From contig NZ_JAUNHL010000006.1 in the NCBI RefSeq assembly GCF_030523955.1, forward strand, positions 1,833-65,832: 64,000 bases of DNA, written 5' to 3'. Shown here in pieces: positions 5,663-60,535 of the stretch. The notes below the pieces were generated by a model that worked only from the letters and a program-made list of their open reading frames with translations, was not told the DNA's origin and ran no database searches. Position 1 is the first letter of the stretch; every line of letters begins with the position of its first letter. Position numbers and translations under genes: made by a program. This stretch comes from Neisseria sp. (GTDB lineage Bacteria > Pseudomonadota > Gammaproteobacteria > Burkholderiales > Neisseriaceae).

Positions 5663-5821
5663 TATAGCGGATTAACTTAACTTTCGCTACGGCGTTGCTG
5701 CGCCTTAGCTCGAAGAGAACGATTTTGTAAGCCGCTAAAGCGGCAACAGAATCGGTTCCGTACTTACTTGTACTGTCTGCGGCTTGCTGCCTTGTATCGA
5801 AAGCTAATTAAATCCGCTATA
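5663..5821. mobile_element. Correia-like repeat-enclosed element, long form of about 159 bp
   Basis: Terminal inverted repeats tatagcggattaac ... ttaatccgctata. The core (ggcgttgctgcgcctt...tgtactgtctgcggcttgctgccttgt) is homologous to the neisserial Correia element consensus. Confidence 0.75.
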
Positions 5822-5895
5822 TTAATCTATTGCTTAGCTTGATTAACTGTTTTTGCTTTGATGAAACAAATGAGTGGATACAGAGAAGTGCCGGT

Positions 5896-5923
5896 TTGAC
5901 AATATTTGCCGGCTTTATATGAA
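5896..5923 (+). promoter_or_regulatory. Candidate sigma70 promoter (TTGACA-16-TATGAA) upstream of the efflux OMF gene
   Basis: Hexamers read directly from the sequence; this would give a leader of about 290 nt. Confidence 0.3.
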
Positions 5924-6211
5924 ATGAATATTTGTTCAGGTGCTGGCATGAAGCGGTGCGTTTTCAACATGGCCCGCGTTTTGCACAAGTTGTATGTTGA
6001 AATTTTCAGACAGGCATTTTGCAACGTTTCATTTATCTGCCTGATTCTTATGAGAAGCAAACAGCGTGGAAGAAAATACATCAGAAATTCACTGCTTCCG
6101 GTGTGGTTTCTTAACACGCAAAACGGTGGTGGATGGGTGCTGACGGTTGAGCTTGACACTGATTTGTGTAACCATCGGTGCCGTTCGGATGATTTGGGAA
6201 AAACCGTTTTT

Positions 6212-7633
6212 ATGAATATTTTATTTGCACGATTAGCTGCCGCCGGTGTGCTGGTTGCTACGCTTGCCGCTTGTGCGGTAGGGTCGGATTATCAAAGGCC
6301 GTCTTTGAACGTGCCCTCTGCGTTCAAGCAGGCGGAGGCGGGCGGGGCTTTGTGGCAGCCGGCTGCGGTGCGGTCGGTTGACAGTGCGCGTTGGTGGACG
6401 GTTTACGATGATGAGGTGCTCAACGGTTTGATGGACAAGCTCAACCGCCAGAACTTCAGTATTGCCGAGGCCGAGGCGCGATACCGTTCGGCTGCGGCGG
6501 CGGTGCGCCAAGCCGAAGCGGGTTTTTACCCGACGGTGGGCGCGGATGCTTCGCGCAGCCGCAGCCGTGCCAACAGTAACGGCGAGGCGGTGTACGGTAC
6601 TGTTGATGCGGCGGGTTTGAGCGTATCTTGGCTGCCGGATTTATGGGGCAGCGTGCGCCGCCAAACCGAGGCGGGAAGGGCTTCGGCCGATGCGGCGGCG
6701 GCGGCGCTGGCGGCGGCGAAACTGGCGGCGCAGGCGCAATTGGCGGATGCTTATCTGAAATTGGTGGTGGCCGACCGCCAGCTGGCTGCTTTGCAGCAGA
6801 ATGTGAAGGATACGAAGCAGTTTTTGCAGTTAACGCAAAACCAATACCGCGCCGGCATCGCCGACCAAAGTACGGTGGAGCAGGCCAACAGCCAGCTGAA
6901 AACCTTGCAGGCACAACAGGCGGCTTTGCACTTGAGCCGTGCGCAATTGGAGCATGCGATTGCGGCGGCGCTGGGCGAAGCGCCGGCGGCTTTCTCGCTG
7001 GATAGCAGGCATGAGGAAGTGGGTCTGCCGCAGATACCTGCCGGGCTGCCTTCCGGTTTGTTGCAACGGCGGCCGGATATTGCCGAAGCCGAGCGTGAAG
7101 TAGCGGCAGCCAATGCGCAAATCGGTGTTGCACAGGCTGCTTATTTTCCGTCGTTAACGCTGGGCGGCAGCATCGGTTTTCGCGGCAGCAGCTTTGCCGA
7201 TTTATTGAATTTGCCGAATTTGGTGTGGTCGGTCGGTCCGCAATTGGCGGCGACCTTGTTTGACGGCGGGCAGCGCCGTGCCGCCACCGCTCAGGCACGG
7301 GCGGATTATGAGGCGGCGGTTGCGGCCTACCGGCAAACGGTGATTACCGCGTTTCAGGAAGTAGAAGACAACCTAGCGGCGCAACAACGCTTGGCTGAGC
7401 AGGCGCGTTATCAAGGCGAAGCGCTGGAGTCGGCGAGAAAGGCGGAAACCATAATGATGAATCAATATAAAGCCGGTGTGGCCAGCTATCTTCAGGTGCT
7501 CACCGCACGCAGCAGCCGTTTGAGCGCCGAGAGCAGCTGGTGGAGCGTGAAAAGCAGCCAATACAGCGCCAGCGTGAACCTGATTGCGGCTTTGGGCGGC
7601 AGTATTCCGGCGGAAGGCTCAAGCAATCGGTGA
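6212..7633 (+). CDS. RND/T1SS outer-membrane factor lipoprotein, NodT/OprM/TolC family
   Basis: Start trimmed to the ATG at 6212; the lipobox is MNILFARLAAAGVLVATLAAC. The protein is 473 aa with the two-repeat coiled-coil OMF architecture; the 5' extension in the ORF track translates a DUS. Confidence 0.75.
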   Translation: MNILFARLAAAGVLVATLAACAVGSDYQRPSLNVPSAFKQAEAGGALWQPAAVRSVDSARWWTVYDDEVLNGLMDKLNRQNFSIAEAEARYRSAAAAVRQAEAGFYPTVGADASRSRSRANSNGEAVYGTVDAAGLSVSWLPDLWGSVRRQTEAGRASADAAAAALAAAKLAAQAQLADAYLKLVVADRQLAALQQNVKDTKQFLQLTQNQYRAGIADQSTVEQANSQLKTLQAQQAALHLSRAQLEHAIAAALGEAPAAFSLDSRHEEVGLPQIPAGLPSGLLQRRPDIAEAEREVAAANAQIGVAQAAYFPSLTLGGSIGFRGSSFADLLNLPNLVWSVGPQLAATLFDGGQRRAATAQARADYEAAVAAYRQTVITAFQEVEDNLAAQQRLAEQARYQGEALESARKAETIMMNQYKAGVASYLQVLTARSSRLSAESSWWSVKSSQYSASVNLIAALGGSIPAEGSSNR

Positions 7634-7642
7634 AACCGTAAA

Positions 7643-7682
7643 ATGCCTGTCTGAAACGGTTTTTTGTTTTTCAGACAGGCAT
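7643..7682. repeat. DUS inverted pair (atgcctgtctgaaa ... tttcagacaggcat) terminator-like hairpin
   Basis: Perfect inverted 14-mers of the ATGCCTGTCTGAA dialect. Confidence 0.7.
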
Positions 7683-59553: not shown

Positions 59554-59650
59554 AAAAGTGTGCCAGCGGATATTTGTTGCAGATTATAGCCGATAAATGC
59601 GGAGGTGTCGGGCGCGAGTTGCTTGGAAAATGCACGCGGTTTGATTATCC

Positions 59651-59794
59651 GAGACCTTTGCAAAACCCCCATCTGTGGCGCATTTCTGCGTTGTGTGCTG
59701 CTCGCTCGCTTGCCTATCTGCTTGATATGTCTGCGCTCGCTGCGCTGCTACGCCTTGAGCTGCATCCACATCTGAGGGTTTTGCAAAGGTCTCT
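59651..59794. mobile_element. Novel 144-bp MITE-like element with imperfect terminal inverted repeats (gagacctttgcaaaaccccc ... gggttttgcaaaggtctc) and a possible TATCC target duplication
   Basis: The 18-nt TIRs are exact reverse complements and extend to about 26 nt with mismatches (aaaacccccatctgtgg / ccacatctgagggtttt). The flanks read ..ttatcc| and |tatccgc. Confidence 0.55.
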
Positions 59795-59879
59795 ATCCGC
59801 CCGTCAGCTTGGTTAAAAAAATCAGGCTGCCGATTGTGCTATCGCCAGCCTGAGGACATTAAGATACATCGGGCGTATT

Positions 59880-60404
59880 TTAACGGATAACGCCGCAGGC
59901 CATGCGGGCACCGCCGCCGCCGAGGGTGGTGGGTTGATCGCTGTAATTGTCGCCGCCGGCGTGTATCATCAAGGCATGGCCGCGTAAGGTGTTGATATTC
60001 TTGAGGCGCGGAGCGACCACCGGTTGTACATCACCGTTCTCAGCCACCGCAAGAGCGGGCAAATCGCCTAAATGGCCGCTGTCATCCCAAGGGCCTTTGT
60101 GGGCTTTGGTTTTTTTGGGATCCCAATGGCCGCCCGCCGCCATTCCGGCCGCCCGCTTGCCTTCTTGGTTTTCCGCAGCGGCACAACTTGGGTTTTCATG
60201 GATGTGGAAGCCATAAATACCTGCTTTGAGGCCTTGCAGTTTGGGGGTGAACACCGCACCGTGTTTGCTCTGGCTGATTCGGATTTCGCCTATCGGGGTA
60301 TCACCTTGTTCCAAATCCAGCCGCGACACAGGTACCACGATTTCGGTTTGCGCCCAAGCGCTGAGGGAAAAGCAGCAAAGTAACGAAGCGATTAATTTTT
60401 TCAT
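59880..60404 (-). CDS. sodC: Periplasmic Cu,Zn superoxide dismutase
   Basis: A signal peptide, the metal ligands in GFHIHENPSC...GGHWDP..., and the C-terminal GGGGARMACGVI. Confidence 0.9.
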   Translation of the reverse strand: MKKLIASLLCCFSLSAWAQTEIVVPVSRLDLEQGDTPIGEIRISQSKHGAVFTPKLQGLKAGIYGFHIHENPSCAAAENQEGKRAAGMAAGGHWDPKKTKAHKGPWDDSGHLGDLPALAVAENGDVQPVVAPRLKNINTLRGHALMIHAGGDNYSDQPTTLGGGGARMACGVIR

Positions 60405-60429
60405 GTGAAGTTTCTCCTGTTTGTTGTGG

Positions 60430-60535
60430 TATAGCGGATTTAATTACTTCGATACAAGACAGCAAGCCGCAGACAGTACAAGTAGTACGACAAGGCGCAG
60501 CAACGCCGTAGCGAAAGTTAAGTTAATCCGCTATA
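60430..60535. mobile_element. Correia-like element, short form in inverted orientation, 26 bp upstream of the sodC start
   Basis: tatagcggatttaattacttcgatacaagacagcaagccgcagacagtacaagtagtacgacaaggcgcagcaacgccgtagcgaaagttaagttaatccgctata. Confidence 0.75.

Follow-up and report, generated by a model that had tools for sequence, protein, structure and literature searches.

Six copies of a small mobile repeat without coding sequence are present in the window analysed here, a 64,000-nt stretch of Neisseria DNA. Very probably (a probability of roughly 85%), they represent a diverged branch of the Correia elements (CREE, or nemis), a family of non-coding MITEs in Neisseria. Among the pathogens of this genus, Correia elements are textbook examples of how small mobile repeats rewire the expression of genes. 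The host in this case is an uncultured Neisseria sp. represented by a MAG, whose closest named relative is N. dentiae. The assignment to CREE is made because the copies show homology to these elements over their full length, fall into the same two size classes, which differ by a deletion with an identical boundary, have a TA duplication, and end in terminal repeats that are predicted to form hairpins.

The repeat units are 104–157 bp long and are bounded by inverted repeats that begin TATAGCGGATT. Two forms exist, a long form (159 bp in the window) and a short form (106–108 bp) that lacks a central palindrome of about 50 bp. The sequence TATAGCGGATTAA occurs 11 times in the window with no more than two mismatches, compared to 0.95 occurrences expected, and none of 100 shuffled sequences reached 11. 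BLAST and an nhmmer profile recover six copies, spanning positions 5663–5821, 29270–29424, 32680–32729, 44402–44504, 46178–46284 and 60430–60534, all of which are intergenic. Both this recovery and the excess of the motif over chance indicate that the copies are real. Intact copies are 92–97% identical to one another across loci and to copies in N. dentiae, and 88–92% identical to those in N. weixii, whereas decayed copies are 75–76% identical. Three other matches to the 13-mer, at 59585 (two mismatches), 13063 and 19543, were excluded because they lack homology to the core. A scan of the window with Rfam returned two tRNAs only and no RNA family covering the repeat elements.

This census largely follows, and in places corrects, an earlier note on the same DNA. 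The copies at 5663, 29270 and 60430 are recovered as proposed, with that at 29270 being decayed, but the presumed fragment at 44425–44512 is in fact a complete element located at 44398–44504, and the copy near ppk starts at 46177 rather than at 46167. Likewise, the proposed sharing of a terminal repeat and a Correia-like core holds for the elements themselves, which are homologous to authentic Correia elements in the core, but not for positions 693–706, where there is only a lone terminal repeat of 13 nt.

Authentic CREE were taken from Neisseria prophage contigs for comparison. The window copies align to these along their full length with 74–77% identity (77% over 154 columns for the long form and 74–75% for the short form), and the profile of the window family matches authentic CREE with E values of 1e-23 to 1e-25 across model positions 1–161. 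Homology runs through the core and beyond the terminal repeat, which bears out the earlier proposal of membership in the Correia family. In addition, the boundary of the deletion that distinguishes the short form, where GTACGG is joined to CAAGG, is identical in window and canonical short forms. The copies have the same terminal 11 bp, TATAG(T/C)GGATT, as the CREE of N. meningitidis, N. gonorrhoeae and N. lactamica. They also have in common with canonical CREE the core GCCGCAGACAGTAC...TACGG...AAGGCG..GCAACGCCGTA and the division into long (153–159 bp) and short (104–108 bp) classes. Other general properties of CREE (PMC2649163, PMC5039591) are found here as well, including duplication of a TA target, intergenic location, ends that are predicted to form hairpins, absence of coding sequence and a Neisseria host.

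The divergence of this branch is most evident within the terminal repeats. Bases 12–28 read (A/T)A(C/T)TTA(A/G)CTTTCG(C/A)TAC in the window copies, as opposed to AACAAAAA(T/C)C(A/G)G(G/T)AC or AAATTTAAACCGGTAC in canonical CREE, and they match none of the four published 26–28-bp Correia repeat variants that were compared (PMC5039591, PMC2911385). Because of these changes, published CREE search patterns would miss the window copies. Across positions 12–30, the left and right ends match the canonical ends at 4 and 11 of 19 positions, respectively, and the two ends of each window element match each other at 12–15 of 19. At bases 12–28, the two terminal repeats have changed in parallel away from the published sequences. 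The central palindrome also differs, with GCCGC/GCGGC replacing the canonical GGTGC/GCACC.

CREE outside the pathogens are already known from human commensals such as N. sicca, N. mucosa and N. macacae, among others. However, the elements in these species have a subterminal repeat of the canonical kind and retain the published IHF motif, whereas the window copies do not. The host also differs, in that it belongs to the wadDUS-dialect, N. dentiae-related part of the genus that is associated with sewage or animals, and we found no description of CREE for this group in the literature searched. The patterns with which Marri et al. 2010 (PMC2911385) searched already include the TATAGCGG spelling, and CREE of 107 and 157–161 bp with slightly variant ends have been reported (PMC10210955). 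Among species-representative genomes, a 30-mer from the A-end of the form described here is present only in N. dentiae, N. weixii, a Neisseria sp. MAG and a Neisseriaceae MAG. Viral contigs gave no match to the window terminal repeat, and a scan of metagenomes gave a single one, which is another long copy (contig L062). Two and possibly three repeat 'dialects' occur in this clade, in which the terminal repeats at the two ends have diverged together; a copy of the canonical type is found in N. dentiae as well.

Structurally, the elements are predicted to form hairpins on both strands that are closed by the terminal repeats (z scores of −3.4 to −6.4). The predicted RNA hairpin of the long copy at 5663 has a free energy of −62 to −63 kcal/mol (z −5.9 to −6.4), and the corresponding values for two short copies are −36.3 kcal/mol (z about −5.5) at 46177 and −33.7 kcal/mol (z −3.4) for the sodC-sense strand at 60430. 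Within the alignment, 91% of structure cells are paired, compared to 33–45% in slid controls, and the terminal 11 bp are paired in 98% of cells. Six pairs exhibit compensatory change between subfamilies, although these changes separate essentially two lineages and thus represent few independent events. One example is position 6 of the terminal repeat, which is C:G in the window copies and T:A in canonical CREE. The two ends and the central palindrome have kept their complementarity through paired changes during divergence from the canonical family.

The element at 5663..5821 (plus strand; nhmmer E 3.7e-51) is an intact long form of 159 bp bounded by TA. It occupies the divergent spacer between a TonB-dependent haem receptor gene (start at 5479, minus strand) and an OMF gene (start at about 6212, plus strand; 473-aa product), and is 77% identical to an authentic long CREE (119 of 154 columns). 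In all eight same-species contigs compared (L042–L049), the site is precisely empty, with the allele GATTAA-TA-AAAAATTTT revealing duplication of the TA in the filled site. The copy is 96.9% identical to a long copy found at an unrelated locus. It was described previously as lying upstream of the OMF gene, but the position of the OMF start puts the element 390 bp away, and the divergent start of the haem receptor gene is nearer (183 bp).

The element at 60430..60535 (minus strand; nhmmer E 3.6e-31) is an intact, inverted short form of 106 bp. On the upstream side of sodC, it is separated from the ATG (60404, minus strand) by 25 bp, in agreement with the 26 bp given before, and it lies downstream of a terminator-like pair of DUS associated with nnrE (60616–60649 in the terminator scan). 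This site is also polymorphic, being empty (GCTTA-TA-CCAT) in two same-species contigs (L001 and L003) and filled in six (L002 and L004–L008). The filled and empty alleles differ by three linked SNPs just upstream, so the insertion polymorphism is not brand new.

Comparison with orthologous intergenic regions lacking the insertion, as the earlier note had recommended, thus yielded precise TA empty sites at both loci, and did so in assemblies independent of one another. The sodC and 5663 copies are insertion polymorphisms in the present population, and since other strains lack one or the other while having identical or near-identical genes, both insertions are dispensable. From such presence and absence in metagenome assemblies, together with the precision of the TA-duplicated empty sites, we infer that the element family has been mobile recently.

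Another intact short form, of 108 bp (46177..46284, plus strand; nhmmer E 1.5e-32), lies between convergent 3ˊ ends, with its start 103 bp past the stop codon of a gene for a glnQ-like ABC ATPase and its end 5 bp beyond that of ppk. It is present in contigs L018 and L019, and part of it is seen where contigs L020 and L022 end. A decayed long form with a degenerate B-end repeat (29270..29424, plus strand; nhmmer E 6.5e-44, model positions 3–160) is flanked by an MFS transporter gene and a minus-strand unit (ORF153 and two tRNA-Leu genes), facing the 3ˊ end of the former and the 3ˊ side of the latter, and is about 76% identical to the 5663 copy. The intergenic spacing is unchanged in all six same-species contigs spanning this site (L054–L059), and the decayed copy is fixed across them. 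Only 50 bp of the B-end persist at 32680..32729 (plus strand; nhmmer E 7.8e-11, model positions 1–50; 86–92% identity to intact copies by BLAST), between the convergent genes rnr and ppsR. The rsmA copy (44398..44504, plus strand; nhmmer E 4.8e-08) is a diverged short form of 107 bp that end-to-end comparison identifies as complete; it carries the terminal-repeat variant TAT[A/G]GCG[G/A]AAAAACTT at both ends and is present at the same position in both contigs checked (L018 and L019). Exact-protein look-ups for RsmA and PpsR matched no record. Finally, the lone 13-nt terminal repeat (AATAGCGGATTAA; 694..706, plus strand), which matches at 12 of 13 positions and is too short for detection by the profile, adjoins an inverted pair of AG-DUS and is located 20 bp upstream of the start of a FecCD-type permease gene. 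The whole 250-bp intergenic allele at this locus is common to N. dentiae (L050 and L051), whereas other same-species contigs carry a 57-bp spacer instead.

An alternative to recent mobility is that the copies are relics of an ancient, dead burst of transposition, and that presence and absence arise only through DUS-mediated transformation recombination or through precise TA–TA deletion. The window is dense in DUS (52 wadDUS and 10 AG-DUS), and one old insertion could suffice, with natural transformation then spreading or removing its alleles. At sodC, the filled and empty alleles are distinct haplotypes, at least one intergenic allele in the window is common to N. dentiae, and our searches found no transposase; current mobility of CREE is an open question in gonococci as well (PMC2649163). 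However, the 5663 copy is intact, is absent from every other contig compared and closely resembles a copy at an unrelated locus, for which a new insertion in the window lineage is the more economical account. Moreover, the 92–97% identity of elements across loci and species equals or exceeds the 81–93% identity of orthologous DNA. We therefore regard a long-dead burst as rather unlikely.

The earlier note had emphasized placement near promoters, pointing out that in pathogenic Neisseria such insertions create promoters, IHF sites and RNase III processing sites, and suggesting that they may have shaped expression here. Three of the six copies are indeed located 5ˊ of a gene, but the other three (46177, 29270 and 32680) occupy spacers in which 3ˊ ends converge. 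For canonical CREE, promoter creation has been documented at uvrB, drg, lst, mtrCDE and dcaC, although only a minority carry promoters at their ends (PMC2649163). Our promoter scans used generic sigma-70 criteria rather than the hexamers of experimentally defined CREE promoters, and at the sodC, OMF and rsmA junctions they revealed no consensus sigma-70-like promoter. Unlike in canonical CREE, the hexamers of promoters of the Black type (a −35 and partial −10 at the gene-proximal end) or the Snyder type (a −10 in the first six bases) are also absent from these three junctions. For sodC, even the relaxed scan is negative in both filled and empty alleles, with the gene-proximal junction reading TATACC, without the final T, and the distal junction having no acceptable −10. 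For the haem receptor gene, the strongest promoter candidate is situated between the 5663 element and the gene itself.

The sole candidate at the three junctions, a weak one from the relaxed scan, is a hybrid upstream of rsmA (TTTTCC-16-TATAAT, 9 of 12 matches). The element ends at 44504, which is 49 bp before the rsmA ATG (44554) rather than the 34 bp claimed before. The −35-like hexamer (44493–44498) resides in the terminal repeat and is separated by 16 bp from a perfect TATAAT (44515–44520), but the latter is native DNA located 10 bp past the element. Contrary to what had been proposed, this hexamer was not created by the insertion junction.

For the IHF site of the long form, Snyder et al. 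reportedly scored the published motif, TAAGGTGCTGAAG, at 100% identity. A canonical copy has no mismatches to this motif and the long copy from N. dentiae has two, whereas the best match in the window long form, TAAGCCGCTAAAG, differs at 3 of 13 positions. With the change in their central palindrome, the motif is thus not conserved in the window copies. The E. coli IHF consensus WATCAANNNNTTR proved uninformative, as an authentic long CREE likewise fails to match it with two or fewer mismatches. Given these results, and that other strains have near-identical or identical genes without the sodC and 5663 insertions, preferential siting at promoters is not supported by the sequences, and we consider it improbable that sodC, rsmA and the OMF gene are now driven or tuned by promoters, IHF sites or processing sites supplied by the elements.

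Any effect of the 5663 copy on the OMF or haem receptor gene would probably be indirect, owing to its distance from the former and its location upstream of the promoter candidate of the latter. The sodC leader is the most plausible place for a copy to be co-transcribed, with the 3ˊ UTRs of ppk and the glnQ-like gene as further possibilities, and any effect there would come through the long RNA hairpin. By analogy with what is documented for canonical CREE, this could mean RNase III processing or protection, rather than a new promoter. A reading in which the elements resemble REP/BIME sequences, being retained chiefly for their RNA or DNA structure (as 3ˊ-end stabilizers, terminator-like hairpins or protein-binding palindromes) with mobility being secondary, is doubtful. 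In its favour are the strong predicted hairpins, their compensatory changes and the position of half of the copies between convergent genes, one of them just past the ppk stop codon. Against it, the hairpins lack a following U-tract, and the terminator scan picks neighbouring DUS pairs and, inside the elements, no more than a minor stem of 5 bp that overlaps the sodC copy at its end (60528–60542). Decay in place at 29270 and 32680 argues against selection on copies, and a single transposase binding both ends would account for the terminal-repeat symmetry equally well.

The elements, of at most 159 bp, encode no protein and so must be moved in trans. The enzyme responsible is presumably still active in this lineage or was until recently. 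The joint divergence of the two ends into dialects, and the canonical-type copy in N. dentiae, point to a slim possibility that a working CREE-moving system may still be present. No transposase was detected among the genes of the window or the fetched loci, nor does the window contain an IS-sized pair of terminal repeats enclosing one. The only long pair (29269 with 32729, 3.5 kb) was rejected as a parent element, as its two repeats belong to separate copies with rnr and two tRNA genes in between. The TA duplication is compatible with an IS630/Tc1-mariner-derived MITE. ERIC of enterobacteria, RUP of pneumococcus and the IS630/Tc1-mariner MITEs are alike in small size, terminal inverted repeats, TA ends, hairpins in transcripts and mobilization in trans, although sequence kinship to the window copies is not expected. 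The parent IS is known for several such MITE families, but we know of none for CREE, including this branch.

These findings leave the understanding of Correia elements unchanged, but they extend the host range of the family to a diverged, clearly related branch in environmental or animal-associated Neisseria, where the two ends of the element evolve together and precise insertion polymorphisms are found among co-circulating strains. The natural pairs of filled and empty alleles at sodC and in the haem receptor/OMF region could be used to test the effect of insertion on expression. Correia elements were described in 1986–88. If each repeat dialect tracks its own transposase, then a comparison of genomes with different dialects and recent insertions could be used to identify the enzyme that moves these elements.

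The 13-nucleotide terminal repeat TATAGCGGATTAA occurs 11 times in the window when up to two mismatches are allowed, compared to 0.95 matches expected by chance, and none of 100 shuffled sequences reached this count. BLAST searches with the copies claimed in an earlier note, together with an nhmmer profile built from them, recovered six copies, which bears out the proposal of a Correia-like repeat family in this DNA. The largest (5663-5821, forward strand, 159 bp) lies between divergent genes, 183 bp from the ATG of a haem receptor gene and 390 bp from that of an orphan outer-membrane-factor (OMF) efflux gene (~6212). 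The ppk copy (46177-46284, forward, 108 bp; profile match from 46178), whose start had been placed at 46167, separates ppk from a convergent glnQ-like gene and begins or ends within the intergenic spacer, 5 bp past the ppk stop codon. The sodC copy (60430-60535, inverted, 106 bp; profile match to 60534) is located 25 bp upstream of sodC, in agreement with the 26 bp first proposed, and downstream of the nnrE terminator formed by a pair of DNA uptake sequences (DUS). A decayed copy (29270-29424, forward) is found between the 3ˊ end of an MFS transporter gene and a minus-strand unit ending at 29460, and a single-end copy (32680-32729, forward) between the convergent genes rnr and ppsR. The latter had been listed as a fragment, as had 693-706, where the match (694-706) is a 13-nucleotide terminal repeat standing alone.

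The copy upstream of rsmA (44398-44504, forward; profile match 44402-44504) had also been considered a fragment, at 44425-44512. Direct comparison of its two ends reveals that both carry TAT[A/G]GCG[G/A]AAAAACTT, and therefore this is a complete element of 107 bp. Both ends depart from the main family in the same way (GGATTAAC replaced by G[G/A]AAAAAC), which points to a third variant of the repeat more than to random decay. No core homology was found around the 13-mer matches at 59585, 13063 and 19543. Very short possible remnants of repeat ends at 19519-19545 (ccttgtatgtatgaatccactttaca) and 13063-13075 (tataatggattta) lack core homology and could be chance matches. On the minus strand at 29460-30053 there are two tandem tRNA-Leu(CAG) genes. 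An ORF of 153 amino acids overlapping the first is called in metagenome contigs, has no family match, and is probably not a gene.

Authentic Correia repeat-enclosed elements (CREE) of 155/156, 106 and 69 bp were obtained from Neisseria prophage contigs by using a published Correia repeat (PMC5039591). The long copy in the window aligns end to end with the canonical long form (119 of 154 columns, 77%), the short copies are 74-75% identical to the canonical short form, and the deletion boundary of the short form, GTACGG|CAAGG, is common to both families. Likewise, the window-family profile matches canonical CREE over model positions 1-161 (E 1e-23 to 1e-25). Thus, the alignment extends well beyond the terminal repeats, and the proposed homology to the Correia core holds. 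The two families share architecture, target, size classes and core. They differ in bases 12-28 of both ends (...A(T/C)C(A/G)G(G/T)AC in canonical CREE, ...CTTTCG(A/C)TAC in the window family), at position 6 of the terminal stem (T:A versus C:G), and in the central palindrome (GGTGC-TTCA-GCACC versus GCCGC-TTTA-GCGGC).

These differences are paired. In an alignment of 17 elements, 91% of structure cells are paired compared to 33-45% when the partners are slid, and six base pairs are changed on both sides, which represent few independent compensatory events because the families are essentially two lineages. With their diverged subterminal repeats and central palindrome, the window elements form a new branch of CREE. 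Through this divergence, the published IHF motif is not conserved (TAAGGTGCTGAAG becomes TAAGCCGCTAAAG, with three mismatches), which speaks against the IHF sites suggested by comparison with pathogenic Neisseria.

Comparison with metagenome contigs of the same species (~97-98% identical to the window, mostly from sewage and wastewater) revealed orthologous intergenic regions that precisely lack the insertion. Contigs encoding an identical SodC are split, with the element present in L002 and L004-L008 and absent from L001 and L003. The empty site, GCGGCCGCTTATA|CCATAAC, equals the filled sequence less 104 bp and one TA, exactly, and is linked to three SNPs directly upstream. The 5663 copy is missing from all eight contigs covering its site (L042-L049), where the sequence is GATTAATAAAAAATTTT. 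Since filled sites carry TA-element-TA where both empty sites carry a single TA, duplication of TA on insertion is shown directly. The ppk and rsmA copies are both found in L018 and L019, and spacing around the decayed copy is unchanged in six of six spanning contigs (L054-L059). Intact copies are 92-97% identical across loci and species and decayed copies 75-76%; the 5663 copy and a long copy at an unrelated locus (metagenome contig L062) share 96.9% identity. Orthologous DNA shows 81-93% identity between N. dentiae and the window. The filled and empty states are most economically explained by recent transposition, and allele exchange by transformation could also have produced them. In L004 (505-709), the element and sodC are as elsewhere, with another left flank (a VbhA-like gene) joining precisely at the element end. 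This join reflects recombination at the repeat or else chimerism in the metagenome assembly.

Another MITE-like repeat, unrelated to the Correia family and ~145 bp long (59649-59793), has near-perfect inverted ends (GAGACCTTTGCAAAACCC...GGGTTTTGCAAAGGTCTC) and is flanked by direct duplications of 5 bp, which read GGATA in the window and GGGCC in L042. It is also polymorphic, because five contigs of the same species (L042-L046) carry it between the haem receptor and OMF genes and it is absent from the equivalent position (5971-5976) of the window. The minus-strand nnrE/YjeF_N gene (~60759-60775) is missing an in-frame segment of 117 bp (39 codons) found in L001-L003, giving an ORF of 166 rather than 205 amino acids. 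The gap is bounded by short CGCCGA repeats and is either a real deletion or an assembly artefact.

The elements had been proposed to occupy promoter-proximal positions as a family. Three of the six lie at 5ˊ positions and three, including the ppk copy, between convergent 3ˊ ends, and this split does not show promoter enrichment. A consensus scan found no sigma-70-like site at the sodC, OMF or rsmA junctions, and a relaxed scan found no sodC promoter in alleles with or without the insertion. At rsmA, the relaxed scan yielded TTTTCC inside the repeat followed, after a 16-bp spacer, by TATAAT (44515-44520). The element does lie upstream of rsmA, at 49 bp, but this TATAAT, which it was thought to create, sits in native flank 10 bp outside it. 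These results argue against promoter creation by insertion. The 5663 copy does lie upstream of the OMF gene, though closer to the haem receptor start. The best haem receptor promoter candidate (TTTACA-18-TATTAT with a TG extension, 5588-5559) falls between element and gene, and thus the element would be absent from that mRNA. This candidate overlaps the palindrome AATGATTCCTGTTTACAAATAGGAATCATT (5559-5599), which we take to resemble a Fur box upstream of this TonB-dependent haem/haemoglobin receptor gene.

The receptor clusters at 90% or higher with N. dentiae proteins. The dominant DUS is ATGCCTGTCTGAA, of the wadDUS dialect (Frye et al. 2013, PMC3630211), with 52 occurrences of TGCCTGTCTGAA (TG-wadDUS) and 10 of AG-DUS. 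The two dialects are mixed across the window, and many copies are arranged as inverted pairs next to the elements, where they score as terminators. Among species-representative genomes, an exact 30-mer from the A-end of the window form is found solely in N. dentiae (three matches), N. weixii (three), a Neisseria sp. MAG (two) and a Neisseriaceae MAG (one). A canonical-type copy (TATAGTGG...CTGGTAC, L050 2143-2237) is present in N. dentiae as well, and therefore two repeat dialects coexist in this clade. This decayed CREE (TATAGTGGAATCAATAAAAAACTGGTAC...) is upstream of the haem receptor gene in L050-L053. Both the TATAGCGG spelling and the occurrence of CREE in commensal Neisseria have been reported previously (PMC2911385, PMC10210955); the literature searched contained no account of CREE from the N. 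dentiae/N. weixii group. Within the haem locus, the spacer separating the binding-protein gene from the permease gene (675-924) is 250 bp in the window and in N. dentiae (L050, L051) versus 57 bp in seven same-species contigs. This longer version appears to have been imported; it carries an AG-DUS inverted pair, the isolated Correia repeat at 694-706 and one additional repeat.

For every intact copy, a long hairpin with the 11-bp terminal stem at its base is predicted on both strands. Folding energies are -62 to -63 kcal/mol for the long form and -30 to -36 kcal/mol for the short ones (z -3.4 to -6.4). Because the sodC element is flanked by the upstream terminator on one side and the ribosome-binding site on the other, a promoter anywhere in the 80 bp of native upstream DNA would read through it and place the hairpin in the sodC leader. 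By analogy with canonical CREE, whose hairpins are RNase III substrates (PMC2649163), the hairpin in this leader might likewise serve as one. No transposase is present among the annotated genes of the window. The co-diverged ends and current polymorphism of this family might help to find the enzyme that moves Correia elements.
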